A stretch of DNA of 64,000 nucleotides from Anaerolineales bacterium. Its GTDB lineage: Bacteria; Chloroflexota; Anaerolineae; Anaerolineales; Villigracilaceae. Positions 7,745 through 22,583 of the stretch are shown piece by piece. The notes under the pieces were generated by a model, which was not told where the DNA came from, ran no database searches, and worked only from the letters and a program-made list of their open reading frames with translations. The stretch is taken from NCBI GenBank assembly GCA_013140605.1, contig JABFSL010000042.1, positions 31,168 to 95,167 of the forward strand. The letters are read 5' to 3'. Numbering within the stretch: the first letter of the stretch is position 1; each line of letters opens with the position of its first letter. The position numbers and the translations under genes were made by a program.

Positions 7745-8946
7745 TCCAACAGCTTTGATATGTGTTCGATGATCTTTTCCGCCACTTCGATTTTACTCAT
7801 CAGCGGCAGCGTTTCCTTCGACCCATTTGCGAACAGGATCGTCACGCGATTGGTCTCCACCGCAAACCCCGCATCGTCAGCGGAAATATTATTCGCAACA
7901 ATAAAATCCAGATTTTTTGATTGCAGCTTTTCGGATGCGTTTTCGAGAAGGTCGCGACTCTCCGCCGCGAATCCTGCCACGACTTGAAAACGCTTCTTAC
8001 TTAACTGTGAGCTGGCAACTGTTTTAAGGATATCAGGCGCCGCTTCGAGTTTTACCTGCGGAATGCCGTCGCGCTTTTTCAATTTATCCTTTGCAGCCTG
8101 CACCGGGCGGAAGTCTGCCGCCGCCACCGCCATGATCAAAGCATCAGCGGATTCTTTCATCACCGCATTAAGCATTTCCTGCACGCTATTAGCTTTGATC
8201 ACGCGCGCACCCACAGGCGGAGTCAATGCTGTCGGCGCAGTGATCAGGCAAACGCCCGCGCCCGAATCGAGAGCTGCCTGGGCGAGCGCATATCCCTGCT
8301 TGCCGGAGGAATGATTCGTAATGACTCGCACCGGGTCGATCGCTTCCTGAGTCCCGCCCGCAGTGACAACGATCTTTTTACCCGCGAGTTTTCCATTCCT
8401 GCCAAGTATGATTCGAAGGTGACCGATAATTTCGGCAGGCTCGATCATTCGTCCCTTGCCTGTTAGCCCGGAAGCGAGATGCCCGTCAGCGGGACCAATA
8501 ATGATGGCGCCGCCTTCTCTAAGTTTAGTTAGATTTTCCTGCGTGGTGGGGTGATAGTACATACCGCCATCCATTGCGGGGGCGATCACCAACGGGCATT
8601 CCGCAGCCAGCGCTGTGACCGTGAGTAGATTATCCGCGAGGCCGTGTGCGAGCTTTGCGATGGTATGTGCTGTACATGGCGCGATGACCAGCAGGTCTGC
8701 TGTTTTTCCGAAACTGACATGCAGGACATGTGCTTCATTGCCCCACAGATCTTGTTCGACATATGCGCGGCGGCCAGTCACAGATTGGAAGGTAAGCGGT
8801 GTAACGAATTTTTCTCCCGCGCCTGTTATAAGAACGTCCACTTTTGCGCCTGCCTGTGCAAGCTTGGAAGCAACGTCAGCGGCTTTGTAACTTGCAATGG
8901 AGCCTGTCACGCCGAGTAGAATGTGTTTACCAGAGAATACGGACAT
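7741..8946 (-). CDS. coaBC: Bifunctional phosphopantothenoylcysteine decarboxylase/ligase
   Basis: GVTGSIASYKA, APAMDGGM, TAGGTQEAIDPVRVITNHSSGKQG and GFAAES motifs. Confidence 0.97.
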   Translation of the reverse strand: MSVFSGKHILLGVTGSIASYKAADVASKLAQAGAKVDVLITGAGEKFVTPLTFQSVTGRRAYVEQDLWGNEAHVLHVSFGKTADLLVIAPCTAHTIAKLAHGLADNLLTVTALAAECPLVIAPAMDGGMYYHPTTQENLTKLREGGAIIIGPADGHLASGLTGKGRMIEPAEIIGHLRIILGRNGKLAGKKIVVTAGGTQEAIDPVRVITNHSSGKQGYALAQAALDSGAGVCLITAPTALTPPVGARVIKANSVQEMLNAVMKESADALIMAVAAADFRPVQAAKDKLKKRDGIPQVKLEAAPDILKTVASSQLSKKRFQVVAGFAAESRDLLENASEKLQSKNLDFIVANNISADDAGFAVETNRVTILFANGSKETLPLMSKIEVAEKIIEHISKLLE

Positions 8947-8987
8947 ATGGGCTGATTATACTTCCAACTCAACTGGAAAATTGCCCC

Positions 8988-9016
8988 TTGACGCATTTGA
9001 GCGACGCGCATAGAAT
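8988..9016 (+). promoter_or_regulatory. Sigma70-type promoter of the aro operon
   Basis: TTGACG(8988)-17 nt-TAGAAT(9011). Confidence 0.75.
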
Positions 9017-9026
9017 AGCGCCCAAC

Positions 9027-9101
9027 ATGTTAACTACTGTCCGCTTTTATTTTGCGTATTACTTTAACGGCCTCCGCTCGGTTGCCGCTGGTTGCGCTTA
9101 A
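9027..9101 (+). CDS. Phe/Tyr-rich leader peptide MLTTVRFYFAYYFNGLRSVAAGCA (24 aa)
   Basis: 6 Phe/Tyr codons in 7 consecutive positions (9045-9065), lying between the promoter and a terminator. Confidence 0.8.
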   Translation: MLTTVRFYFAYYFNGLRSVAAGCA

Positions 9102-9124
9102 GTAGACAGAAAAAATCTGTATGC

Positions 9125-9158
9125 AAAAAGAGCGAGACCACACGGTCTCGCTCTTTTT
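9125..9158 (+). terminator. Attenuator terminator hairpin upstream of aroH
   Basis: aaaaagagcgagacc-acac-ggtctcgctcttttt. Confidence 0.8.
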
Positions 9159-9163
9159 ATTCC

Positions 9164-9200
9164 CCCTCACCCCAACCCCTCTCCCAAAAGGGGAGAGGGG
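9164..9200. repeat. CCCTCACCCC..CCCCTCTCCC..GGGAGAGGGG REP-like hairpin
   Basis: cccctctccc/gggagagggg stem just before the aroH RBS. Confidence 0.7.
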
Positions 9201-9215
9201 CTACAAGGAGCAATT

Positions 9216-9587
9216 ATGGCAATCCGTGGAATCCGTGGCGCGACAACCGTATCGGCAGATGAACCCGATCTAATTCTCGAAGCCACACGGGAATTGTTGG
9301 AAGCAATTTTGGCGGCAAATGAAAGCATGTTGCCTGAGGATGTAGGCAGCGCGCTTTTCACCGTGACTGACGATCTCGCCTCGACCTTCCCCGCGCAGGC
9401 GGCGAGACAAATGGGCTGGGGACTCGTCCCGATGATGTGCGCAAGGGAAATCCCAGTCCCTGGCAGTTTGCGGAAAGTCATCCGTGTACTTGTCCACTGG
9501 AATACGGAGATGCCGCAATCTGAAATCACGCACGTTTATTTACGCGATGCGGTAAAGTTGAGACCCGACTTGGTTGCCGCGCAATAA
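9216..9587 (+). CDS. aroH: Chorismate mutase, AroH type
   Basis: IRGIRGATTV, FTVTDDLASTFPAQAAR and YLRDAVKLRPDL motifs. Confidence 0.95.
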   Translation: MAIRGIRGATTVSADEPDLILEATRELLEAILAANESMLPEDVGSALFTVTDDLASTFPAQAARQMGWGLVPMMCAREIPVPGSLRKVIRVLVHWNTEMPQSEITHVYLRDAVKLRPDLVAAQ

Positions 9588-9591
9588 AACC

Positions 9592-9641
9592 AAGTCGAAA
9601 GTCAAAAGTCAATACGTGACCTTCGACTTTTGACCTTTGAC
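9592..9641. repeat. Inverted heptamer array (aagtcga/aagtcaa ... ccttcga/gaccttt)
   Basis: 7-nt periodic opposed halves right after the aroH stop. Confidence 0.75.
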
Positions 9642-9664
9642 AGGATTTTTAAGGAGAAGAACCT

Positions 9665-10723
9665 ATGATGATCATAATGAAAGCCAATGCCACGCCGCAG
9701 GAAGTGGAAGCGGTGATCGCACAAATCAAATCAATGGGACTCGCCGTCCATTTATCGCAGGGAGTCGAAGCGACGATTATCGGTGCGATCGGTGAGACAC
9801 ATAATATTCCCATGGAACGCTTCGAAGGCTTGGACGGCGTGGATATTGTCCAGCGTATCACCCAGCCGTACAAGCTCGCTTCACGACAATTCCACCCCGA
9901 AGATTCGATCATCCCATTGAGCGGATTCGCTGTCGGTGGAAATGAGATCGCCATCATTGCGGGACCATGCTCGGTGGAGAGTCGCTCACAGATCATTGAA
10001 ACAGCCATCGCTGTGAAAGAGGCGGGAGCGTCCGCTTTGCGCGGCGGAGTGTTCAAGCCGCGCACATCGCCGTATGCATTTCAAGGATTGGGCGAAGAAG
10101 GTCTTGAACTTCTCGCCGAGGCACGCGAGAAAACGGGCCTGCCCATCGTTGTTGAAATTATGTCGCAGGTGCAGTTGGATTTGATGGTGAAGTACGTGGA
10201 TGTGTTTCAAGTGGGCGCGCGCAATATGCAGAATTTCAATTTACTGCGCGCCATCGGTGAAACACGCACTGCGGTTCTGCTCAAGCGCGGACTTTCCGCT
10301 ACCATCGAAGAACTACTGATGTCTGCTGAATATATTCTGGCTGGGGGAAATCAACGTGTGATGTTGTGTGAGCGCGGAATCCGCACATTCGAAACATCCA
10401 CGCGTAACACTACTGATATCAATGCTGTTCCCGTTTTAAAACACTTAACTCATTTGCCCGTCATCCTTGACCCAAGCCACTCCACAGGCCACGCGGATTA
10501 TGTCGCCGCGATTGCGCGCGCTGGCATTGCCGCAGGCGCAGACGGACTAATTATCGAAGTTCATCCTGATCCTGCAAAAGCAGTTTCGGATGGCAAGCAA
10601 TCTCTCAAACCAGAAAAATTTGCCGAGATGGTCAAGCAGGTTGGTCAGATCGCGCAGATTATGGGACGCAGGCTCGCCGCTGTTCAAGGAAATGTTCAAC
10701 CGTTGAAGCAGGGGTGGGCGTAA
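9665..10723 (+). CDS. aroF: DAHP synthase type I-beta with N-terminal ACT-like domain, copy 1
   Basis: AGPCSVES, FKPRTSPYAFQG, GARNMQNF, LKRG, LCERGIRTF and DPSH motifs. Confidence 0.95.
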   Translation: MMIIMKANATPQEVEAVIAQIKSMGLAVHLSQGVEATIIGAIGETHNIPMERFEGLDGVDIVQRITQPYKLASRQFHPEDSIIPLSGFAVGGNEIAIIAGPCSVESRSQIIETAIAVKEAGASALRGGVFKPRTSPYAFQGLGEEGLELLAEAREKTGLPIVVEIMSQVQLDLMVKYVDVFQVGARNMQNFNLLRAIGETRTAVLLKRGLSATIEELLMSAEYILAGGNQRVMLCERGIRTFETSTRNTTDINAVPVLKHLTHLPVILDPSHSTGHADYVAAIARAGIAAGADGLIIEVHPDPAKAVSDGKQSLKPEKFAEMVKQVGQIAQIMGRRLAAVQGNVQPLKQGWA

Positions 10724-10731
10724 ATAAATTT

Positions 10732-10799
10732 GTAGGGGCGACCCTTGTGGTCGCCCTTGATTTACATAAATATTGGGCGGGGACGAGCCCCGCCCCTAC
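10732..10799. repeat. Paired GTAG-type REP units (REPIN-like) between the two aroF copies
   Basis: gtaggggcgacc..ggtcgccc and gggcggggac..ccccgcccctac. Confidence 0.8.
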
Positions 10800-10824
10800 A
10801 AAACATAAAAAAGGAAATATCACC

Positions 10825-11859
10825 ATGATGATCATCATGCACCCCGGTGCCCCCAGAGAACAAATAGACGCTGTCATTGCCGAAATTGAAAAACATAAAT
10901 TATCTTCCCATCCCATCTTTGGCGTTGAGCAAACCATCATCGGCGCAGTCGGCGACGGTCACTATGTTGCAAAGGAAATCTTTGAAGCATTGCCCGGCGT
11001 ATTGGAAGTTCAACGTATTTCCAAGCCTTACAAACTTGCCTCACGACAATTCCACGAACAGGATTCTATATTTCAACTCGACGGCTTCTCCGTTGGCGGC
11101 ACAGAAATCCCAATTATTGCAGGCCCGTGCTCGGTTGAGTCCCGTGCGCAGATTCTTGAGATCGCGCAGGCGGTCAAGGAAGCGGGCGCAAATGCTCTTC
11201 GCGGTGGCGTCTTCAAACCGCGCACGTCGCCATATGCCTTTCAAGGTCTCGGCGAAGAAGGTCTCGAATACATGGTTGAAGCCCGCGAAAAAACAGGCTT
11301 GCCCATCGTTGCCGAAGTAATGGCAGTTTCGCAAATCAAGATGATGGAAAAATATGTGGATGTTTTCCAACTCGGCGCGCGTAATATGCAAAACTTCAAT
11401 CTGCTGCGTGCCATTGGTGAAACACGTACTCCTGTCCTTTTCAAACGCGGCATGTCCGCCACCATCGAAGAAATGTTGATGGCAAGCGAGTACATCATCA
11501 GCGGCGGCAACACGCGCGTCATGTTGTGCGAGCGCGGCATCCGCACATTTGAAACTTCCACGCGCAACACCACTGACATCAATGCCATCCCCGTCCTCAA
11601 AAAACTTACGCACCTTCCCGTCATCCTCGATCCCTCGCACTCCACTGGCGACTCCGCGTATGTCTCCGCAATTGCAAAAGGCGGTGTTGCTGCTGGTGCC
11701 GATGGCATCATTGTTGAAGTGCATCAAGATCCCGCGCACGCAATTTCGGATGGCAAGCAATCTCTCACCCCTGAGGCATTTGCCAAAATGGTGAAGCAGA
11801 TCAAAGCGGTGGCAGAAGCGGTGGATCGTCGTTTGGTTCCGCAACATGCCACAGCCTGA
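10825..11859 (+). CDS. aroF: DAHP synthase type I-beta with ACT-like domain, copy 2
   Basis: same catalytic motifs as copy 1; start at 10825 after RBS aagga. Confidence 0.95.
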   Translation: MMIIMHPGAPREQIDAVIAEIEKHKLSSHPIFGVEQTIIGAVGDGHYVAKEIFEALPGVLEVQRISKPYKLASRQFHEQDSIFQLDGFSVGGTEIPIIAGPCSVESRAQILEIAQAVKEAGANALRGGVFKPRTSPYAFQGLGEEGLEYMVEAREKTGLPIVAEVMAVSQIKMMEKYVDVFQLGARNMQNFNLLRAIGETRTPVLFKRGMSATIEEMLMASEYIISGGNTRVMLCERGIRTFETSTRNTTDINAIPVLKKLTHLPVILDPSHSTGDSAYVSAIAKGGVAAGADGIIVEVHQDPAHAISDGKQSLTPEAFAKMVKQIKAVAEAVDRRLVPQHATA

Positions 11860-12700
11860 CTTTAATCTCGCAGAGTCAAAGATCGCAATCATCGGATTGG
11901 GATTAATGGGCGGCTCGCTCGCTTTGGGATTGCGTGGAAAATGTGCCGCGCTCTACGGGATTGACCCGCATCTTCCCACGCTCGAAACTGCTCTGTCCCA
12001 ACATATAGTGGATTACGCTGACAGTGACCCTGCCAGCCTTCTCCCAGAAGTTGACCTTGTAATCCTATCAGCCCCCGTCCCCGCGATTTTGACTCTGCTT
12101 GAGAAGTTGCCAACGTTCACACAAAATCCCTGCATTATCATGGACATGGGCTCAACGAAAAAGTTGATCGTCGAATCCATGTCGCGCCTGCCCAAACGCT
12201 TTGACCCCATCGGCGGACATCCCATCTGCGGCAAGGAAAAACTCTCCCTCGCCAACGCCGAACGGACTCTCTACTACGCCGCGCCATTTTTGCTGACCCC
12301 GCTTGAACGAACATCACCACGAGCATTATCTGCTGCCAATCAAATCATCGAAGCGGTTGGCGCGAAAGCCAAAATTCTCGAAGCAGTTGAACATGACCGC
12401 ATCCTCGCATCCACAAGTCATTTGCCATTTTTGATTTCCTCCGCGCTGGCGCTTGCAACGCCGCAAGATGTTTCATCATTTATTGGCCCAGGCTTCAAAT
12501 CTACAAGCCGCCTAGCTGGCACATCTTCTTCGATGATGCTGGGCGTCCTGCAATCCAACCGTGAAAATGTTTTGAACGCGCTTCATGGAATGCAAAATCA
12601 ACTGGCAGACCTCGAATCCGCTTTGGATTCAAGTGATTTCTTGAAACTTGAATCCGTTTTGAACGAAGCACAGAAAAAATATCAAGATTTCTCTGTGTGA
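11846..12700 (+). CDS. tyrA: Prephenate/arogenate dehydrogenase
   Basis: IIGLGLMGGSLA, DMGSTK, GGHPICG, HDRILASTSHLP and FKSTSRLA motifs. Confidence 0.92.
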   Translation: MPQPDFNLAESKIAIIGLGLMGGSLALGLRGKCAALYGIDPHLPTLETALSQHIVDYADSDPASLLPEVDLVILSAPVPAILTLLEKLPTFTQNPCIIMDMGSTKKLIVESMSRLPKRFDPIGGHPICGKEKLSLANAERTLYYAAPFLLTPLERTSPRALSAANQIIEAVGAKAKILEAVEHDRILASTSHLPFLISSALALATPQDVSSFIGPGFKSTSRLAGTSSSMMLGVLQSNRENVLNALHGMQNQLADLESALDSSDFLKLESVLNEAQKKYQDFSV

Positions 12701-12759
12701 AAAACACACGCAGATACCCATCCGTTTATCCGCTTTGCGAAGCAATCCGTTACCTCATT

Positions 12760-14064
12760 ATGAAAATCACTCCCATCACACACCCGCTGAAAGCAACTGT
12801 CCGCGTGCCAGGCTCCAAATCGCTGACCAACCGTGCCTTGCTGATTGCATCCCTCGCAGACGGAACTACGCATTTAACCAATGCCTTGTTCTCCGACGAT
12901 TCGCGTTACTTCGCCAAGGCTTTGCAAACCCTTGGCTTCGACGTCCAATTGGATGAGGTTGCTTACTCGATGATTGTTACTGGTCTCGGCGGAAAAATCC
13001 CTGCAAAGAAAGCCGAGCTATTCATTGGGAATGCAGGCACAGCCGCAAGATTCCTCTCTGCGTTTCTCACACTCGGAAATGGTGAGTATGTCTTGGATGG
13101 CGAGCCGCGCATGCGTGAACGTCCGATAGGGGATTTGGTTGATTCGCTTACACAACTTGGCGCAATGATTATGCCTGTTGAACGTTCAACGTTAAATGTT
13201 CGACGCCAAATATGCCCGCCAGTGAAAATTGCTTCCAATGGCTTGCCTGGCGGAAAGACAGCGATTGCGGGCGATATTTCATCTCAATTTTTATCCGCCC
13301 TGCTCATGGTCGCTCCATACGCTCAAAGTGAAATTGAAATTACCCTTTCGACAGACCTCAACTCCAAACCCTATGTGGATATGACCATTGCGATTATGAA
13401 AGACTTCGGCGTGGAAATCGAACGCGACAACTATTCACAATTCACCATTCGCTCAGCCTCCTACTTACCACTTACCAATTACCCCATAGAGTCCGACGCT
13501 TCCGCCGCATCCTACTTCTTCGCCGCTCCAGCCATCTGCGGTGGGACTGTCCGCGTGGAAAACATCTCACGCAAATCTATCCAAGGCGATATTGCATTTC
13601 TCGATGTCTTTAAGCAAATGGGATGTCAGGTTATAGAAGGGGAGAATTTCATCGAAGTTACTGGAACAGAGTCATTGATCGGTGTAGATGTGGACATGCG
13701 CGATATCCCCGACACAGCCCAAACCCTCGCAGTCATTGCTCCCTTTGCATCTTCTCCAACAAGAATTCGTGGCATCGCTTCGGCTCGTGTCAAAGAGACT
13801 GACCGTGTTTCAGCAACCTGTACTGAACTCAAACGGCTCGGAGTAGAAGTTGAAGAACACGAAGACGGCATGACCATATACCCAACCTTCAACCTTCAAC
13901 CTTCAACCTTCAAACCTGCCACCGTTCAAACCTACAATGACCACCGCATGGCGATGGCGTTCTCATTAATCGGCTTGCGCTTCGATGGCGTGACCATTGA
14001 AAACCCATCCTGCGTTTCCAAAACATTCCCAAATTATTTTGAAGTTCTTGAGGCGCTGCAATGA
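12760..14064 (+). CDS. aroA: EPSP synthase with two heptamer-derived insertions
   Basis: PGSKSLTNRALL, GNAGTAARF, SSQFLSALL, RVKETDR and DHRMAMAF motifs; start moved to 12760. Confidence 0.97.
   Translation: MKITPITHPLKATVRVPGSKSLTNRALLIASLADGTTHLTNALFSDDSRYFAKALQTLGFDVQLDEVAYSMIVTGLGGKIPAKKAELFIGNAGTAARFLSAFLTLGNGEYVLDGEPRMRERPIGDLVDSLTQLGAMIMPVERSTLNVRRQICPPVKIASNGLPGGKTAIAGDISSQFLSALLMVAPYAQSEIEITLSTDLNSKPYVDMTIAIMKDFGVEIERDNYSQFTIRSASYLPLTNYPIESDASAASYFFAAPAICGGTVRVENISRKSIQGDIAFLDVFKQMGCQVIEGENFIEVTGTESLIGVDVDMRDIPDTAQTLAVIAPFASSPTRIRGIASARVKETDRVSATCTELKRLGVEVEEHEDGMTIYPTFNLQPSTFKPATVQTYNDHRMAMAFSLIGLRFDGVTIENPSCVSKTFPNYFEVLEALQ
13177..13204 (+). repeat. In-frame heptamer array inside aroA (gttgaac gttcaac gttaaat gttcgac)
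   Basis: 4 x 7 nt, encoding VERSTLNVR. Confidence 0.8.
13883..13917 (+). repeat. In-frame heptamer array inside aroA (caacctt x4 + caaacct)
   Basis: 4 perfect units plus 1 variant, encoding TFNLQPSTFKP. Confidence 0.9.
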
Positions 14065-14891
14065 TAAAACTCGGCCTGATCGGTTATCCTGTTAGTCATA
14101 GCATGTCTCCAAAGATTCAAAATGCTGCCCTGCAAGCCGCAGGTTTGCAAGGTGACTATTCCCTATTCCCTATTCACCCCGATGATGACCAGGGCTTGAA
14201 AGGCTTACTCAATAAAGTCCGCTCGGGCGAAATTGTCGGACTCAACGTCACCATTCCGCACAAACAAAATGTGATTCGATTTATGGACGAACTCACGCCC
14301 ACAGCCAAATCCATTGGCGCAGTCAACACCATTTATATGCGAGACGATAAACTCATCGGCGACAATACCGACGCGCATGGTTTTTTATCTGACCTCAAAA
14401 GATTTCTTGAAGATAGTCAATCATCAATCGGCAATCGGCAATCGGCAATTGTATTGGGGGCAGGTGGTTCTGCTCGTTCGGTTGTGTATGCTTTATGCAA
14501 TGACGGTTGGAAAGTTGCCCTTGCCGCCCGCCGGCATGAACAGGCAGAACAACTTGCAAGTTCATTTTCAACTTACGAAATGCAAATCGCAACTTTCACT
14601 GACCTTCAACTTGCAACCTTCGACCTGCTGGTAAACACCACCCCACTAGGCATGACTCCAAACATAAATACATCGCCGCTACCCGAAGGGATTTTATTGC
14701 CCAGCCATGCGGTTATTTATGATTTGGTCTACAATCCACGCGAGACAAAATTTGTGCGGGATGCCCGTTTACAAGGACTGCGAGCGACCACAGGTTTGGG
14801 TATGCTCATCGAACAAGCCGCGCTTGGATTCGAATTGTGGACGGGGAAAAAACTTCCCAACGAAGTATTCCGAAACGCTGTCGATAACTGA
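14061..14891 (+). CDS. aroE: Shikimate dehydrogenase
   Basis: HSMSPKIQN, GLNVTIPHK, GAVNT, NTDAHGF, GAGGSARS and GLGMLIEQA motifs. Confidence 0.96.
   Translation: MIKLGLIGYPVSHSMSPKIQNAALQAAGLQGDYSLFPIHPDDDQGLKGLLNKVRSGEIVGLNVTIPHKQNVIRFMDELTPTAKSIGAVNTIYMRDDKLIGDNTDAHGFLSDLKRFLEDSQSSIGNRQSAIVLGAGGSARSVVYALCNDGWKVALAARRHEQAEQLASSFSTYEMQIATFTDLQLATFDLLVNTTPLGMTPNINTSPLPEGILLPSHAVIYDLVYNPRETKFVRDARLQGLRATTGLGMLIEQAALGFELWTGKKLPNEVFRNAVDN
14416..14450 (+). repeat. In-frame heptamer array inside aroE (gtcaatc atcaatc ggcaatc ggcaatc ggcaatt)
   Basis: 5 x 7 nt, encoding SQSSIGNRQSAI. Confidence 0.9.
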
Positions 14892-14906
14892 TCACTGGAG
14901 ACAACA

Positions 14907-16082
14907 ATGCCTTTACGCTTCCTAACGGCTGGAGAATCCCACGGCCCATCGCTCACAGCCATCCTTGATGGAATGCCCGCTGGACTTTCCATCACAACTG
15001 AAATCATCAACAAGGAACTCGCCCGCCGCCAGCAGGGGTACGGTTCAGGCGGACGCATGAAAATTGAAAAGGACACCGTGCAAATCCTCGGCGGCGTGAT
15101 GAGCGGCGAAACCACTGGCGCGCCGATTGCATTGCTCGTCCAAAACGATGACCATGTCAAATGGAAGGGCAAAGCCATCGAGCCAATGACCGCTCCGCGC
15201 CCAGGTCACGCGGACTTAACTGGCGCGGTGAAATATGGTTATAAAGATTTGCGCCCCGCACTTGAACGCGCCTCCGCCCGTGAAACCACCATGCGAGTCG
15301 CGGCGGGTGCAGTGTGCAAGCATTTTCTCGAACAATTCGGAATCATCATCGGCGGATATGTTTCATCCATTGGCGAAATCCAAACTGATTTTGGTGATAT
15401 GCCTTTTGAAGAGCGCTTCATCCGCGCGGAAGAATCCGATGTGCGCTGTCCCATCGAATCATCCGCAGATCAAATGCGTGCTGAGATTGAAAAAACCATT
15501 CATGGCAAAAATACATTGGGTGGCGTGCTTGAAATTGTCGCGCTCAATCTTCCAGTGGGCCTTGGCAGTTTTGTCCAATGGGATTGCCGCCTCGAAGCCA
15601 AGCTTGCAATGGCGATCATGAGTGTTCAAGCTATCAAAGGTGTCGAAGTCGGCGATGCATTTGAAAACGCAAAACGAATCGGCACGCAAGCCCACGACCC
15701 AATCAACCTAATTCCTAATTCCCAATCCCTAATTCGTAATTCAAACCGCGCAGGCGGAACCGAAGGTGGAATTAGTAATGGACAGCCGATCATCATCCGC
15801 GCGGCGATGAAACCGATAGCCACCACGCTTCTTCCCCAGCCGACAGTTGATCTGGCGTCAGGGACAGAATCACCCACCAAATATGAACGCTCCGACTTCT
15901 GCCCCGTGCCTCGCGCCGTCCCGATTCTTGAAGCAATGGTCGCCTTTGTCCTGGCTGATGCTCTCATCGAAAAACTCGGCGGCGACTCAATGAATGAAAT
16001 GAAACCGCGCTTTGAATCTTTGCGAAAAGCCACGCTTGAAGACCTCCCAATGGATAATATTCCACACGTATTTTGGGGATAA
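14907..16082 (+). CDS. aroC: Chorismate synthase
   Basis: TAGESHG, RRQQGYGSGGRM, PRPGHADL, ERASARET and AAMKPIAT motifs. Confidence 0.97.
   Translation: MPLRFLTAGESHGPSLTAILDGMPAGLSITTEIINKELARRQQGYGSGGRMKIEKDTVQILGGVMSGETTGAPIALLVQNDDHVKWKGKAIEPMTAPRPGHADLTGAVKYGYKDLRPALERASARETTMRVAAGAVCKHFLEQFGIIIGGYVSSIGEIQTDFGDMPFEERFIRAEESDVRCPIESSADQMRAEIEKTIHGKNTLGGVLEIVALNLPVGLGSFVQWDCRLEAKLAMAIMSVQAIKGVEVGDAFENAKRIGTQAHDPINLIPNSQSLIRNSNRAGGTEGGISNGQPIIIRAAMKPIATTLLPQPTVDLASGTESPTKYERSDFCPVPRAVPILEAMVAFVLADALIEKLGGDSMNEMKPRFESLRKATLEDLPMDNIPHVFWG
15707..15741 (+). repeat. In-frame heptamer array inside aroC (cctaatt family)
   Basis: 5 x 7 nt, encoding LIPNSQSLIRNS just before NRAGG. Confidence 0.88.
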
Positions 16083-16087
16083 TTTTC

Positions 16088-16684
16088 ATGTTTATTGATT
16101 TTGACTGGACACACATATGTCTTGGCCTTATCTTGCTGGGGGGTTCCCTAATCTTTTTATGGCAAAAAAATAAAAGCATCTCATATCTATTTTTCTTTAC
16201 CATTTTTTGGATATACATGATGGCTGTTGTAAGTGTAATTGTTTTTCCATTTTATATTCCTGAAAACTTCTCTAAGTTCGGCAACAAATTAAGCATCAAC
16301 CTTATGCCATTTGATTTTGGGGGTTGCTTTGACGACCTGCCTGCTTTATGCTTCAGGAGTATTTATGAAAATATCCTCCTTACAGTCCCGTTTGGATTTG
16401 GAGTCAGCTTTATTACCCGTATCAATCCTAAAAGAATCGCCTGGCTTGCCATTTCTGTTGGACTTGTTTTTGAGATCGCCCAACTTGTCATTGTATTAAT
16501 CTTCCATGCTTCGTTTCGCACTGTGGACATCAACGATGTCATCCTTAACGCCGCAGGAGTTCTGCTTGGCTACGGAATCTTCTGTGTTTTCGGAGTGATA
16601 TATTCCTTTATCATTCAAAAACTCGCACAACAACCCCGTCATATTTTTGCCTATATTTATGATGTGGTTCACAATCAAAACTGA
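16088..16684 (+). CDS. VanZ-like membrane protein
   Basis: NLMPF, ENILLTVPFGF, FEIAQL and DINDVILNAAG motifs; AT-rich. Confidence 0.85.
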   Translation: MFIDFDWTHICLGLILLGGSLIFLWQKNKSISYLFFFTIFWIYMMAVVSVIVFPFYIPENFSKFGNKLSINLMPFDFGGCFDDLPALCFRSIYENILLTVPFGFGVSFITRINPKRIAWLAISVGLVFEIAQLVIVLIFHASFRTVDINDVILNAAGVLLGYGIFCVFGVIYSFIIQKLAQQPRHIFAYIYDVVHNQN

Positions 16685-16701
16685 TAACTGGATATTAAAC
16701 C

Positions 16702-18273
16702 ATGCATATCTTCCTCTACGGCCCGCCTGGGACAGGCAAATCTACAGTCGGAAAAAAACTTGCTCATAATCTCAATCTCCCTTTCATTGACCTTGACCGC
16801 GTCATCGAAACCAAAGCGGGTATATCCATTTCGCACATTATGGAACAACAGGGTGAATCTGCATTTCGTGACCTTGAATCCGCGGCGCTGAAAGAGGTTG
16901 TATCAGGTCACGCTTTTAGCGTGGCAAATACTGAAGACCTCGGCGGGTTACAAACCCACCCTACAGAATCAGTAATCGCTCTTGGCGGCGGCGCATTGTT
17001 ACGCGACGAAAATCGTAACTTCGCTGAAAGCCACGGTAGTGTCATTTTGTTGGTGGCAGAGTTATCTACTTTGCTTGAGCGATTGCATTACGAATCTGGG
17101 AATCGTCCTTTGCTGGCTGGAGACTTGCGCGAAAAACTTTCATCGCTATTGGCAAAGCGCCATGACCATTACAACTCTTTCCCATTGCTTATCCATATGG
17201 ATGGCAAAACTGCCGAACAGAATGCTCATCAAGCGCAAATTGCATTGGGGCGACATCACCTGTCCGCGATGGGAGAGTATGATGTCATCGTAGGTCAGGT
17301 TTCCAACCTGACAAACTTCCCCATGCAAAACCCCATCATTGTCACTGATGAAAATGTGGCGAAGTTTCATCTTGAAAAAATCAAGCAAGTTTTAGGAAGT
17401 GATATTAAATCTATTATTGTCCCCGCTGGCGAAGAGCATAAAAACCTCGAAACCATTTCCTATTTATGGAAATCTTTTCTTGAAAACGGACTTGACCGCA
17501 AGAGCACAGTCATTGCTTTGGGTGGCGGTGTGGTTGGGGACATGACAGGCTTTGCCGCATCCACGTACATGCGTGGAATTAATTGGATTGGCATACCAAC
17601 GACCCTGCTTTCGATGGTGGATGCTTCGCTGGGCGGGAAGACTGGATTTGACCTGCCCGAAGGAAAAAATCTGATCGGTTCTTTTTACCCGCCGAAACTT
17701 GTTCTGGCTGACCCAAACCTTTTGTTTACGCTGCCAGAACGCGAACTGCGCTCCGGCATGGCGGAAGTGGTTAAGCATGGAATTATCTCTGACCCTGAAT
17801 TATTTAATTTATGCTTGCGCGGATTGGATTGGGTGAAAGATAATCTCGAAGAAGTTGTCAAACGCGCGATGGCGGTGAAGATCAAAGTCATCGAGGAAGA
17901 TCCGTATGAAAAAGGATTCCGCGCGGCATTGAATTTGGGACACACGGTCGGACATGCAGTGGAGCTTGTCAGTAAATTTAAACTTCGGCATGGAGAGGCG
18001 ATTGCCATCGGCATGGTGGCTGAGGCGAAGTATTCTGCCCGGGTTGGGCTGGCAGGCGTCGGGTTGGTGGAGGCGGTGACAGAGTCGCTCAAAGCGTTGG
18101 GATTGCCCATTCAAATTCCCGAAGAAATGCCGCGCGAGGAAATTATCCGTGCGATGCGAGTGGATAAGAAGAAGAATGCGAAGACCATTAGGTTTGCTTT
18201 GCCTGTTGAGATCGGCAAAGTGGAGTTGGTCGCGGTGCGTGTGACGGATTTGGAAGAGGTAATTGGACGATAG
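16702..18273 (+). CDS. aroKB: Shikimate kinase / 3-dehydroquinate synthase fusion
   Basis: GPPGTGKS P-loop, ALGGG; GEEHK, GGGVVGD, PTTLLSMVDASLGGKTG and LNLGHTVGHA motifs. Confidence 0.95.
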   Translation: MHIFLYGPPGTGKSTVGKKLAHNLNLPFIDLDRVIETKAGISISHIMEQQGESAFRDLESAALKEVVSGHAFSVANTEDLGGLQTHPTESVIALGGGALLRDENRNFAESHGSVILLVAELSTLLERLHYESGNRPLLAGDLREKLSSLLAKRHDHYNSFPLLIHMDGKTAEQNAHQAQIALGRHHLSAMGEYDVIVGQVSNLTNFPMQNPIIVTDENVAKFHLEKIKQVLGSDIKSIIVPAGEEHKNLETISYLWKSFLENGLDRKSTVIALGGGVVGDMTGFAASTYMRGINWIGIPTTLLSMVDASLGGKTGFDLPEGKNLIGSFYPPKLVLADPNLLFTLPERELRSGMAEVVKHGIISDPELFNLCLRGLDWVKDNLEEVVKRAMAVKIKVIEEDPYEKGFRAALNLGHTVGHAVELVSKFKLRHGEAIAIGMVAEAKYSARVGLAGVGLVEAVTESLKALGLPIQIPEEMPREEIIRAMRVDKKKNAKTIRFALPVEIGKVELVAVRVTDLEEVIGR

Positions 18274-18324
18274 ACAGTAGACCGTGGACGATAAAAACGG
18301 TCTGCGGTCTACCGTCCACGGTCT
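18265..18324. repeat. Inverted heptamer array (ggacgat agacagt agaccgt ggacgat / cggtctg cggtcta ccgtcca)
   Basis: overlaps the aroB stop; same family as 3907-3965. Confidence 0.8.
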
Positions 18325-18333
18325 TAAGGAGAG

Positions 18334-18771
18334 ATGATGAAAATACTAATCCTGCACGGCCCAAATTTGAATTTGCTTGGAACGCGTGAGCCTGAGGTAT
18401 ACGGCTCAATGACGTTGAATGATATCAATGAGAAGATGATTGTATTGGGCAAAGAATTGGATGCGGAAATAACCTGCCTGCAATCGAATCACGAAGGCGC
18501 GTTGATCGATGCGTTGCAGGATGCTCGCACATGGGCGAATGGTGTGGTGTTCAACCCTGGCGGATATACACATACATCCGTTGCGCTGCGTGATGCGATC
18601 TCTGCGATTGTGATTCCTGTCATCGAGGTGCATTTGTCTAATGTGTATGCGCGTGAGGAGTTTCGGCATACGTCTTTGGTCTCGGCGGTATGCAAAGGCA
18701 AAGTCAGCGGCTTTGGCTGGCATTCGTATGAGTTGGGCTTGCGCGGGCTCATTGATATAATCAAGGTGTGA
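18334..18771 (+). CDS. aroQ: Type II 3-dehydroquinate dehydratase
   Basis: GPNLNLLGTREPEVYG, QSNHEG, NPGGYTHTS and EVHLSN motifs. Confidence 0.97.
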   Translation: MMKILILHGPNLNLLGTREPEVYGSMTLNDINEKMIVLGKELDAEITCLQSNHEGALIDALQDARTWANGVVFNPGGYTHTSVALRDAISAIVIPVIEVHLSNVYAREEFRHTSLVSAVCKGKVSGFGWHSYELGLRGLIDIIKV

Positions 18772-19553
18772 ACACTCAAACCATACAAACTGCTGAACCT
18801 TTTTTTCTGCCTGGTGGGCGAACAGGTATATTGCTAATTCATGGATTTACCGGAACACCCAAGGAAATGCGCTGGATGGGGGAATACTTAAACCGTGAAC
18901 TTGGTTTCACTTGTCTTGGTATCCGACTGGCGGGACATGCAACCCGCCCCAAGGATATGGTTCGCTCGCGCTGGACCGATTGGACGGCTTCTGTTGAAGA
19001 TGGTTACAATCTCTTGCGCGGCTCGGTGGATAATATTTATTTTGTTGGGCTTTCGATGGGGGGCGCATTGTCGTTACTTATGTCTACGAAATTGGATGTG
19101 AAGGGTGTGCTGACCATATCAGCGCCTTATCAATTAACAGAAGAACATCCCGCGTGGCAGATACAACTCTATAGTTATTTCAAAACGTATCTTCCAAAAA
19201 CCAAGGGTGAGCCTGGGGCAGGCTGGTTTGATAAGGACGCTTACAAGGATCACATTTCGTATCCATTGAACCCGATCCGCTCGGCGGCGGAGTTGAAGAT
19301 ATTGCTCGACAAGATGCACTTTGCTTTGCCGAAAGTAAATGTGCCTGTCATGTTGATCCATTCCAAAGATGATGCGTATGTGCTTCCTGAAAATATGGAG
19401 AAAATTTACGCAGGGCTGGTTGCTCTGCATGCATCAGACAAGACAAAACTTTACGTGACTGGATCAGGCCATGTCGTTACGCGTGATGCGGCTCGTCATC
19501 AGGTGTTTGAAGCCGCGCGGGATTTCATTCGACGAATTGATAGTCAATCTTAA
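18768..19553 (+). CDS. Alpha/beta-fold carboxylesterase
   Basis: HGFTG oxyanion motif, GLSMGG nucleophile elbow, SGHV catalytic His. Confidence 0.9.
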   Translation: MNTQTIQTAEPFFLPGGRTGILLIHGFTGTPKEMRWMGEYLNRELGFTCLGIRLAGHATRPKDMVRSRWTDWTASVEDGYNLLRGSVDNIYFVGLSMGGALSLLMSTKLDVKGVLTISAPYQLTEEHPAWQIQLYSYFKTYLPKTKGEPGAGWFDKDAYKDHISYPLNPIRSAAELKILLDKMHFALPKVNVPVMLIHSKDDAYVLPENMEKIYAGLVALHASDKTKLYVTGSGHVVTRDAARHQVFEAARDFIRRIDSQS

Positions 19554-19560
19554 GTAGGTT

Positions 19561-19648
19561 ATGTCGTTGCGAGGGCGATGTTTTTCGCCCGAAGCAATCT
19601 CCAGTTAAGAGGAGATTGCTTCGTCGCTACCGCTCCTCGCAACGACAT
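19561..19648. repeat. REP-like element (GTCGTTGCGAG..GAAGCAATC..GATTGCTTC..CTCGCAACGAC)
   Basis: nested inverted repeats ending immediately before the MFS ATG. Confidence 0.88.
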
Positions 19649-20788
19649 ATGAGAGGCATTTTGAATCGCAACTTATTTTTTGTGGCCGCGGCTTTATTTC
19701 TTTGGGGCTTCGGCGAAGGGATGTTCTTTAATTTTGTGCCGATCTATCTTGACGTGCAATTTTTGTTGAGCAAATATCAGATCGGGTTGATCCTTGGCGC
19801 GTTCGGTTTTTCAATGGCAATCACGCATATCCCGGCAGGCCGCCTCGCTGATAGATTTGGGCGCAGGCCTTTGCTGATCGGCGCATGGCTGCTTGGATTG
19901 TTCTCAACATTGGTCATGGGGTTTGCGCAGGTCTTGCCGCTTTTTTTAATTGGATTATTTGCTTATGGATTGACGGCCTTTGTTTCATCGCCATTAAGCA
20001 GTTATGTGACCGCTGCGCGCGGCAAGTGGCCTGTTGGAACTGTACTCTCGCTCACCACTGCGACCTTTGGCATGGGTATGGTGCTGGGGCCCGTCACTGG
20101 CGGATGGATCGGAGACCATTACGGCATGCGCATGAGTTTTTATGTTGCGGCTGTTGTGTTCGTTTTCTCGAACTTGTTTATGAGTCTCATCGAGCATCAG
20201 CCAATTGATCATCACGATCCTGATTCTCCTCCGCTGAGTTTGAGAAGCAATCGACGGTTCATCACTTTAATGGGTGTGCTTGCATTTGCGACGTTCTCAA
20301 TGTATCTTGCTCAGCCGCTAACGCCGAATTTTCTCGAAGGTGTGCGCAGACTTTCATTGAGTCAGACAGGATTGGTCTTTACTGCGGGCGCGTTGGGAAA
20401 CTCGTTGCTGGCAATTACTTTCAGCCGTGCCAATCCTCGCCGCGGATATTTATTTACACAAGCGTTGGTGATTTTGTTTGCGTTTTTTATTTGGAAAGGC
20501 ACAACCCTGCCTGTCTTTGCGTTGGGATATTTTCTGCTGGGCGGGTTCCGTGCAAGCCGCCCAATGGCGATGGCGCAGGCGCGTGAGCTTGTACATGATT
20601 CACAGATGGGAATCACCTATGGCATCATGGAAACTATCAGTTCGGTCATCTTCATCGTCACTCCGCCGATTGCTGGTTATTTATTCGAGCGTGACCCGAT
20701 GATTATTTATCCGCTTGCGATTGGTTTGATTCTTGCTTCGATTGTTGTGAGTTCCATGTTTTTGCCGCGAAAGGAAGCCCATGCTTGA
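19649..20788 (+). CDS. MFS transporter
   Basis: GRLADRFGRRP motif A; about 12 TM segments; start uncertain (19616 or 19649). Confidence 0.9.
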   Translation: MRGILNRNLFFVAAALFLWGFGEGMFFNFVPIYLDVQFLLSKYQIGLILGAFGFSMAITHIPAGRLADRFGRRPLLIGAWLLGLFSTLVMGFAQVLPLFLIGLFAYGLTAFVSSPLSSYVTAARGKWPVGTVLSLTTATFGMGMVLGPVTGGWIGDHYGMRMSFYVAAVVFVFSNLFMSLIEHQPIDHHDPDSPPLSLRSNRRFITLMGVLAFATFSMYLAQPLTPNFLEGVRRLSLSQTGLVFTAGALGNSLLAITFSRANPRRGYLFTQALVILFAFFIWKGTTLPVFALGYFLLGGFRASRPMAMAQARELVHDSQMGITYGIMETISSVIFIVTPPIAGYLFERDPMIIYPLAIGLILASIVVSSMFLPRKEAHA

Positions 20789-21419
20789 GATACTCTCTTT
20801 CACACTTGGCCCCGCTTCAACCAATGCCTATCTGGTTGCTGACCCCGAAACAAAAGAAGCGGCTGTCATTGACCCATCCTGGGATGGACATATCATCCTC
20901 AAAGCCGCTCAGGATCGCGGCTGGCGGATTGGTCATCTCTGGTACACGCACGCGCATTTCGATCATATTGGCGGGGCGGCGGCGATTGCCGATGCGCTCA
21001 ATCCATTGCCGCATGTTGCTCTCCATCCCGATGACCATGTCCTCTGGCGCGCGGGCGGTGGCGGTGCGCTCTTCGGCTTTGACATTGATCCTGGTCCCGA
21101 ACCGACGATTGATTTTGCGCATGGCATGATTCTCAAACTCGGCTCCAATGAATTTGAAGTGCGCCATACACCGGGGCATACCCGCGGACTTTGTGTGCTG
21201 TATGTAGCAAAGGAAAATATCTGTTTTTGCGGCGACCTGATCTTCAACGGCAGTGTTGGCCGCACCGACCTGCCCGGCGGCGATTTTGCAACTTTGGCAA
21301 ACAGCATCCGCACGCAAATTTTTACCATGCCCGATGAAACCCGTCTGCTTTCTGGTCATGGTTCTGAAACGACTGTGGGGCGTGAGAAAATTTATAATCC
21401 ATTTGTTGGAATAAATTAA
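20781..21419 (+). CDS. Metallo-beta-lactamase-fold hydrolase (glyoxalase II-like)
   Basis: THAHFDH, HTPGHT, GDLIF, GRTDLPGG and GHG motifs. Confidence 0.93.
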   Translation: MLEILSFTLGPASTNAYLVADPETKEAAVIDPSWDGHIILKAAQDRGWRIGHLWYTHAHFDHIGGAAAIADALNPLPHVALHPDDHVLWRAGGGGALFGFDIDPGPEPTIDFAHGMILKLGSNEFEVRHTPGHTRGLCVLYVAKENICFCGDLIFNGSVGRTDLPGGDFATLANSIRTQIFTMPDETRLLSGHGSETTVGREKIYNPFVGIN

Positions 21420-21458
21420 TTCCCGTATAATCTGAAAAAAAACAGTGAGGAGATAAAA

Positions 21459-22583
21459 ATGAAAAATCCAAATGCACAAAATCAAAAGACTAATTCAACG
21501 CCGCCTTCCGAACCAAGACCATCTTTCCTCTCTTTAATTCCACGCTGGCTGATCGGATTGGTTATAGGAGTAATTGTTATTGCTGTCCTTGCCAATTTTA
21601 GCAAGTCATTTTGGTATTTTGAAGTGGTTGAGAACGATCAAGTTGGTGTAACCATTGAAGCGGGCGAAATCCAGGGTGTTGTACAACCGGGTATTGCTTA
21701 TGATTTTGGCCTGTTTGTGGATCTGGTTAAGATTACGACCAGCGCAGTTGCCATCACAGTGGATGACCCCGAATTGATCACAATTGATAAACAACGCATT
21801 GGATTGGAAGTAACCGCTGATGTGTTTCGTCCGCGTGAAGCTGATGTTGTTATCTCGAATTATTCGCGATATCGAAATATTTATTTGAACGACGAATCCC
21901 TCCAACAACGCATGACAGCCTTTACCTTGCAGGCCATGAAGGTTTGCGTTGGCGACAAGAAATTTGATGAGGCAGTGATCGGATCGGGCCGTGACGATCT
22001 GCGTGCCTGCATTGACGAAGAGTTGAGCGGGCTGGCTGAACCGCTGGGCTTGGAAGTACGAAATGTGGCCGTACCGCAAATTTCAATTTCGCCCGAAGTA
22101 CAGGCCGGGCTTGACGCAATTGTGCAAAGCCGTTTGGCTACTGAAAAGGCAAAGCAGGATGCTGAAAAGGCCAAGCAGGAAGCCATTGCCCAACAGGCTG
22201 TGGAGGAGGGTCGAATCCGTGTGGAACAGTCGAAATTGCAGGAAGAGGCGCGCCAACAAGCCATTCTTCAGGAACTAAAACAGCAGCAATTGGCGGCAGA
22301 GTTGGCCGTGATCGAACAGGAGACTGTCAATGCTCAAGCGCAATTGAATCTCACAAAGGCGCAGCAACAGGTCGCGGATGAACAGGCAAGAGTGGATATT
22401 GCCAAGGAATTGGCGCTTGCTCAAATGTACGCCAGCCATCCAGAATATGTTGCTTTGCAAATCGCGCTGGCAAATTCAACAGCCATCAAAGACACAGATA
22501 AACTCATTTTCACGCCGGATGGCGTCTTCCCGAATTTGATCTTCTCGAACGGCACACTGCCAACATTCAATGTAAATCCGTAA
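21459..22583 (+). CDS. SPFH/band-7 domain membrane protein with coiled-coil tail
   Basis: N-terminal TM helix, band-7-like core, AQQ/EQ-rich coiled coil. Confidence 0.8.
   Translation: MKNPNAQNQKTNSTPPSEPRPSFLSLIPRWLIGLVIGVIVIAVLANFSKSFWYFEVVENDQVGVTIEAGEIQGVVQPGIAYDFGLFVDLVKITTSAVAITVDDPELITIDKQRIGLEVTADVFRPREADVVISNYSRYRNIYLNDESLQQRMTAFTLQAMKVCVGDKKFDEAVIGSGRDDLRACIDEELSGLAEPLGLEVRNVAVPQISISPEVQAGLDAIVQSRLATEKAKQDAEKAKQEAIAQQAVEEGRIRVEQSKLQEEARQQAILQELKQQQLAAELAVIEQETVNAQAQLNLTKAQQQVADEQARVDIAKELALAQMYASHPEYVALQIALANSTAIKDTDKLIFTPDGVFPNLIFSNGTLPTFNVNP

Follow-up and report, generated by a model that had tools for sequence, protein, structure and literature searches.

Most documented cases of classical attenuation come from Proteobacteria and Actinobacteria, and pheL and pheM of E. 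coli are the textbook attenuators for phenylalanine. The leader of the aro operon described here resembles pheL-pheA and pheM-pheST in its leader peptide with Phe codons, its predicted alternative 1:2, 2:3 and 3:4 helices and its intrinsic terminator. Unlike pheL and pheM, it matched no Rfam Phe_leader model, its codons mix Phe, Tyr and, in some relatives, Trp, and its transcript is predicted to be near-leaderless where theirs are led by a Shine-Dalgarno (SD) sequence; unlike pheL, it stands before genes of the common shikimate pathway and tyrA, not before pheA. The architecture and logic of E. coli trpL and thrL, with the stop codon in segment 2 and the regulatory codons in segment 1, are the same, although other amino acids are sensed there. 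With the Tyr, Phe and Trp T-boxes that precede aro, tyrS and pheS genes of Firmicutes and some Chloroflexi, the aro leader would have in common the sensing of tRNA charging and the terminator/antiterminator output, whereas it has no specifier loop, no T-box sequence and no Rfam match, and its sensor would be the translating ribosome.

The closest characterised case is aroR of Corynebacterium glutamicum, and the likeness drawn here, from its description, is one of function. As relayed in PMC11802643, aroR encodes a Phe-Tyr-Phe leader peptide that controls the aroF operon and responds to Phe limitation, not to Tyr limitation (Neshat 2014, via PMC11802643). By that account, aroR works as is proposed for the present leader: a small peptide containing Phe and Tyr codons governs, through ribosome stalling with attenuation, an aromatic operon including a DAHP synthase. 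Unlike the triplet of aroR, the leaders here carry 6-8 aromatic codons, and their operon, in another phylum, is much larger and begins with aroH. A sequence-only reading of the locus had named no characterised example of this class; aroR, as described in PMC11802643, is one, a Phe/Tyr leader peptide for a DAHP-synthase operon outside Chloroflexota. A literature search, with subscription journals outside its scope, returned no description of such a leader in Chloroflexi/Chloroflexota. The mechanism is ordinary; new are its occurrence in this phylum, the predicted near-leaderless start, the number of genes that would be controlled as one operon and what looks like modular reuse.

The locus was analysed within a window of 64,000 nucleotides, which is the whole stretch of DNA presented here, and its features are as follows.

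8988-8993, + strand: -35 box TTGACG, from reading of the sequence, with TTGAC at the same position in 73 of 75 relatives.
9011-9016, + strand: -10 box TAGAAT, its end 10 nt ahead of the start codon of the upstream open reading frame (uORF).
9027-9101, + strand: leader-peptide uORF MLTTVRFYFAYYFNGLRSVAAGCA with its TAA, kept in close relatives and also in other families and classes.
9037-9063, + strand: segment 1, the 5' strand of the 1:2 helix (anti-antiterminator), overlapping the Phe/Tyr codons, from the minimum free energy (MFE) fold.
9045-9065, + strand: regulatory codon run TTT TAT TTT GCG TAT TAC TTT (F Y F A Y Y F), aromatic in relatives with F, Y and W exchanged.
9068-9087, + strand: P1 hairpin, CGGC...GCCG with inner CC/GG, directly 3' of the aromatic run, from folding and alignment A1.
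9090-9109, + strand: segment 2, holding the stop codon and pairing with segment 1 or the terminator 5' arm, from folding.
9102-9124, + strand: P3 hairpin (GUA/UGC and ACAGA/UCUGU), extended by the antiterminator, from folding and seen in the folds of the genus.
9125-9163, + strand: intrinsic terminator, stem 9125-9139/9144-9158 with loop ACAC and a U-rich tail, from folding and A1.
9205-9210, + strand: SD sequence AAGGAG of aroH, from reading of the sequence.
9216-19553, + strand: putative controlled operon, from open reading frames, family assignment and spacing.

These features very probably constitute a classical ribosome-mediated (leader-peptide) transcription attenuator of an aromatic amino acid operon, as the sequence-only reading had proposed. 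The proposal was strongly supported by the conserved uORF, aromatic run, stop codon and terminator, by the lack of room for a promoter in relatives, by parallel leaders in the same genome and by the lack of any riboswitch or T-box match in Rfam.

In the proposed mechanism, transcription would begin a few bases before ATG 9027 and the mRNA on which the peptide is made would be essentially leaderless. Given an ample supply of Phe-tRNA and Tyr-tRNA, the ribosome would pass the seven Phe/Tyr codons and reach the stop codon at 9099-9101. Segment 2 (9090-9109) would then be covered by the ribosome or, without translation, be paired to segment 1 (9037-9063); with segment 2 occupied, the terminator at 9125-9158 would form and RNA polymerase would halt ahead of aroH. 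A shortage of charged Phe- or Tyr-tRNA would make the ribosome stall on 9045-9065 and cover segment 1, and the freed segment 2 would pair with the newly made 5' arm of the terminator (9090-9093/9136-9139 and 9095-9099/9130-9134, on P3). The terminator would thereby be blocked, and transcription would continue into aroH, the DAHP synthases, tyrA, aroA, aroE, aroC, aroKB and aroQ. Most likely, then, the operon would be switched on when Phe or Tyr runs short. A dual response to Phe and Tyr is not guaranteed for the aro leader, because aroR of C. glutamicum reacts to Phe limitation only.

The promoter TTGACG-17-TAGAAT claimed by the earlier reading was present at 8988-9016 and, with 10 of 12 promoter matches, was one of the two top promoter-like sites in a scan of 14 kb (8000-22000); its spacer is 17 nt, and ATG 9027 begins 10 nt further on. 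In 71 of 75 relatives the -10-like hexamer and the ATG were exactly 10 nt apart. An SD-like motif before the uORF was found in none of the 75, nor at ATG 9027. Because of this spacing and the lack of SD-like motifs in relatives, the leader peptide is probably made from a near-leaderless mRNA, with no SD and a 5' untranslated region of only about 2-4 nt, and the transcription start would lie a few bases 5' of ATG 9027. The peptide itself was recovered as had been claimed, with 24 amino acids including FYFAYYF, ATG at 9027, stop codon TAA at 9099-9101 and no Trp; seven of eight consecutive codons were Phe or Tyr (9045-9065). We infer that this uORF (9027-9101) is translated. Its lack of Trp, which the earlier reading had noted, is not the rule in the genus, most members of which have one Trp codon.

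Conservation was analysed by searching for AroH and inspecting the 400 nt upstream of each match. In a scan of named public genomes, the relatives proved to be Anaerolineales metagenome-assembled genomes (MAGs), including Candidatus Villigracilis, and 76 of them at species level had enough upstream sequence. The conservation of an F/Y(/W)-rich uORF upstream of aroH, a check that the sequence-only reading had suggested, was seen in 75 of these 76 close relatives, in other families and in further Anaerolineae. From the AroH search, 19 genomes of the genus were found to have the uORF together with the terminator, and so were members of at least 10 further families within the order (one genome from each of 10). 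Two subtypes of the leader were distinguished, RFYFAYYF, which is that of the source genome and has no Trp, and RWFAFYFYY, with one Trp. F, Y and W replaced one another freely in the run, which stayed aromatic; the ATG, the position of the stop codon and the RNA helices were conserved, and the remaining peptide sequence was not. Several species had a 1-nt deletion after the run (…YYYFTAPNRLPLVALK) and still stopped within segment 2; their stop is the TAG in the conserved CTTAAGTAG and lies 3 nt past the usual one. Since these frameshifted variants keep their stop inside segment 2, the C-terminal part of the peptide is unimportant, and it is the RNA and the position of the stop that matter; in the sequences compared, codon identity and RNA are under selection rather than the peptide. 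In one member of the genus (G010, L012), a 1-nt insertion shifted the frame of the uORF so that it ended 21 nt later, at the foot of the terminator; either the sequence contains an error there, or the behaviour of this leader is altered or constitutive.

With strict filters, a covariance model built from 29 leaders (R1) recovered the leader in 36 of the 401 genomes of Anaerolineae searched. At the loci inspected, the matches with an aromatic uORF lay directly upstream of aroH and in one case of a DAHP synthase. In a search of the rest of the phylum, R1 gave no true match outside Anaerolineae; three matches there (G446, G418:C24 and G082) were rejected as terminators at the 3' ends of genes. 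R1 is too lineage-specific for the other classes of Chloroflexota. Direct inspection upstream of aroH revealed the same layout in some genomes from several families of these classes, with leader peptides such as MVGSRFYTYFFYFTSRKPDWSLRISWR and MQSRSAYYFWFWYFASSPRDWLLRVG, each consisting of a uORF, a strong terminator, an SD sequence and aroH. The arrangement is widespread in Chloroflexota. The uORF of these examples began about 30 nt 3' of a -10-like box, not 10 nt, and at least one had an SD-like AAGGAAG. Where aroH stood inside an operon in other Chloroflexota, no leader was seen directly upstream of it.

The folding of the whole leader gave -48.9 kcal/mol (z = -5.5 against shuffles). In the MFE structure, segment 1 paired with segment 2 through 9037-9041/9105-9109, 9043-9046/9100-9103, 9054-9058/9093-9097 and 9061-9063/9090-9092. 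The strong terminator that had been claimed ahead of aroH was confirmed as a stem of 15 bp (9125-9139/9144-9158) with a U tail; its 3' arm is U-rich and runs into the U-tract. A simple terminator scan missed the hairpin at 9125-9158 because the U-tract itself forms part of the stem. On A1, 98% of the cells of the terminator were paired, with compensatory changes at 5 pairs, and P1 showed compensatory changes at 6 of 9 pairs. For P1 and the terminator taken together, 93.4% of the cells were paired and 11 pairs (40 cells) were compensatory, values reached by 0 of 500 shuffles. A canonical intrinsic terminator was kept in every lineage examined. The stop codon (9099-9101) falls within segment 2, and a ribosome finishing the peptide would therefore block the antiterminator. 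The gene upstream of the leader is a divergent Dfp/CoaBC flavoprotein gene, so the terminator at 9125-9158 serves no convergent gene.

The antiterminator was predicted by masking the footprint of the stalled ribosome and cutting the transcript before the 3' arm of the terminator, under which conditions segment 2 folded with the terminator 5' arm. The predicted helix consists of GGUU 9090-9093 with GACC 9136-9139 and CGCUU 9095-9099 with GAGCG 9130-9134, stacked on P3, so that bases 9130-9134 and 9136-9139 of the terminator 5' arm are the segment-3 partners. Its stability was about -16 kcal/mol versus -22 kcal/mol for the terminator; as the terminator is the more stable at equilibrium, the switch would have to be kinetic. 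Comparable pairing of segment 2 with the terminator arm was predicted in every lineage folded, and in Chloroflexia-like leaders a GCUUCGC/GCGAGGC pairing was read by eye. On A1, 87.4% of the cells in the antiterminator columns can pair, versus 31-59% with slid partner columns. The covariation of these columns on A1 was not significant, with double changes at only 2 pairs, which 145 of 500 shuffles equalled; when cognate terminator arms were exchanged for non-cognate ones among 23 lineages, the result was p = 0.07; and shuffled segment-2 regions folded about equally well (mean z = -0.3). The low power of these tests is due to the GC-rich, G·U-tolerant arms, which pair with almost anything. The modelled antiterminator is thus a likely but unproven 2:3 helix of the switch. 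The antiterminators proposed by the sequence-only reading survived in part: CUCCGCUC (9072-9079) does pair with GAGCGAG in the source lineage, but this pairing is not conserved in the genus, and the exact helix had to be replaced by the one kept across relatives (9090-9093/9136-9139 and 9095-9099/9130-9134). In relatives of the RWF type, segment 1 lies mostly 5' of the aromatic codons, and the details of the masking may therefore differ between the subtypes.

The start of aroH was placed at 9216 (TIGR01796, E = 1.4e-43). In some relatives the terminator is separated from the ATG of aroH by only 20-30 nt, with the SD sequence directly 3' of the terminator, so that a promoter for aroH alone would not fit there. 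Since, in addition, the promoter scan detected no promoter-like site between 9164 and 9215, the expression of aroH would need read-through of the terminator. Between the terminator and the SD sequence of aroH, a REP-like palindrome, CCCCTCTCCCAAAAGGGGAGAGGGG, was observed at 9176-9200. Similar CCCTCTCC…GGAGAGGG hairpins occupied the same spot in many relatives and were absent or different in others; because of this variability, the palindrome is probably a dispersed repeat that is not part of the switch. In one relative (G011, L004), about 90 bases were masked as N exactly in the spacer between terminator and aroH.

Three other explanations of the locus were weighed. P1 and the terminator are both structured and conserved, as would be expected if the leader were an attenuator that binds a ligand, a tRNA or a protein (riboswitch, T-box or TRAP/PyrR-like) and the ORF were incidental, and many Gram-positive bacteria have their aro and aminoacyl-tRNA synthetase genes under T-box control. 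Nevertheless, an Rfam cmscan of 8800-9400 at E <= 10 gave no T-box, riboswitch or known leader family, including Phe_leader, Trp_leader, His_leader, Thr_leader, Leu_leader and the leu/phe leader; the matches that did occur at this threshold (plastid psbA 3'UTR and miRNAs) were rejected as chance matches to hairpin- or terminator-shaped sequence. The leader, at about 135 nt, has too little length to be a T-box, and its 5' half keeps the amino acid class, the ATG and the position of the stop, not the nucleotide sequence. As the parallel leaders also carry the cognate residues of tyrS, metG, ask, ilvD and hisG, a binding attenuator is very unlikely. It is extremely unlikely that the uORF and its terminator are an independent small gene for a hydrophobic peptide or a small RNA, non-regulatory and followed by an aroH with its own promoter. 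The strength of the terminator would suit such a gene, and the attenuated transcript might do something in its own right, as is reported for rnTrpL/peTrpL in Sinorhizobium; yet the element was always directly upstream of aroH or a DAHP synthase, the C-terminal half of the peptide tolerates frameshifts, and both the short gap before aroH in some relatives and the lack of a promoter-like site in 9164-9215 argue against a promoter for aroH alone.

A translated regulatory uORF that does not sense charged tRNA, either as a TnaC-like arrest peptide for a free aromatic amino acid or through Rho or translational coupling, would account for an antiterminator without significant covariation and for the C-terminal 'VAVGGA', which is fairly conserved in the genus. 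This conservation is lost in the frameshifted variants, and it is accounted for by RNA pairing of the P1 3' arm and segment 2. Runs of codons for the end product of a pathway are the hallmark of tRNA-charging sensors such as trpL, pheL and hisL, and the retention of the canonical intrinsic terminator in all lineages also speaks against arrest or coupling of this kind, which we regard as unlikely. The leader-peptide attenuator responding to tRNA charging was accordingly preferred.

The source assembly (3.9 Mb) was scanned for residue-enriched uORFs with a strong terminator within 70 nt, and the downstream genes were assigned to families. With at least 6 aromatic residues in 8 and a terminator, the 3.9 Mb contained three matches, namely the aro leader, a tyrS leader and one likely protein C-terminus. 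Five parallel leaders were found outside the window, at (in numerical order) C19(+), C48(-), C52(-), C52(+) and C118(+):

tyrS leader: MFGIRFFSNYYYYTKP, Tyr (YYYY).
metG leader: MKFRPASPMVAMTMAMRTMRMEMF…, Met-rich.
Aspartate kinase leader: …GTMTMTTTSG…, Thr/Met.
ilvD leader: …LTLIVVVLVVLII…, Ile/Leu/Val-rich.
hisG leader: …AHKHHHIQPPH…, His.

The enriched residue fitted the downstream gene in all five. Such a fit in every case would be hard to explain otherwise than by ribosome-mediated sensing as a general device of the source organism. In four of the five, those of tyrS, metG, aspartate kinase and hisG, the ATG followed the end of a -10-like box at a distance of about 6-11 nt; the ilvD leader was the exception. 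The promoter and leader start of aspartate kinase in the source genome (TTGACTCAT…GCATAGAATACCGCCCAATTATG) closely resembled those of aro.

R1 also matched Thr/Met-rich leaders (e.g. MMSMSMTTTTMTTTPYRVAVASS) before aspartate kinase in another family of Anaerolineae (L045, L048, L051, L056, L058 and L059). In segment 2 (GCCGTYGCTTCGTCGTGA), in the terminator and in the 3' arm of P1 these leaders agree with the aro leaders, and this common module suggests that one scaffold has been re-coded for different amino acids. There is about an even chance that the leaders belong to an undescribed, phylum-wide family of Chloroflexota attenuators, near-leaderless in Anaerolineales, in which one promoter/RNA scaffold is re-coded for F/Y/W (aro) and Thr/Met (aspartate kinase), the set in the source genome including tyrS, metG, ilvD and hisG and doing the job of the T-box in Firmicutes.

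The analysis provides a model for the regulation of an entire shikimate/tyrosine operon in Anaerolineales, a largely uncultured order that includes the abundant wastewater filament Ca. Villigracilis and in which gene regulation is essentially a blank. The aro leader is unannotated and in no Rfam family, and it is conserved enough to seed a new one, as R1 recovers it class-wide. It would also place classical attenuation on transcripts predicted to be near-leaderless in Chloroflexota. For metabolic reconstruction from MAGs, the composition of the leader (F/Y with or without W) may indicate which end products feed back on the pathway.

The genes between 9216 and 19553 encode aroH, two DAHP synthases, tyrA, aroA, aroE, aroC, a VanZ-like gene, an aroK-aroB fusion, aroQ and an alpha/beta hydrolase; aroH and the ten further genes overlap or lie at most 78 nt apart. 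From these overlaps and short gaps only, the attenuator would be expected to control the whole operon (9216-19553). A prephenate dehydratase domain (PF00800) was not detected in the source assembly, which is 96% complete, and was present in 20 of 31 relatives. In one complete genome of the genus, no Phe leader was seen ahead of pheA. The pheA gene stood directly upstream of the aro leader in one member of the genus and was fused to aroH in one other family. The VanZ-like membrane protein gene (PF04892, E = 3.7e-18) at 16073-16684, between aroC and aroK-aroB, overlaps aroC by 10 nt and is an odd passenger for a shikimate operon.
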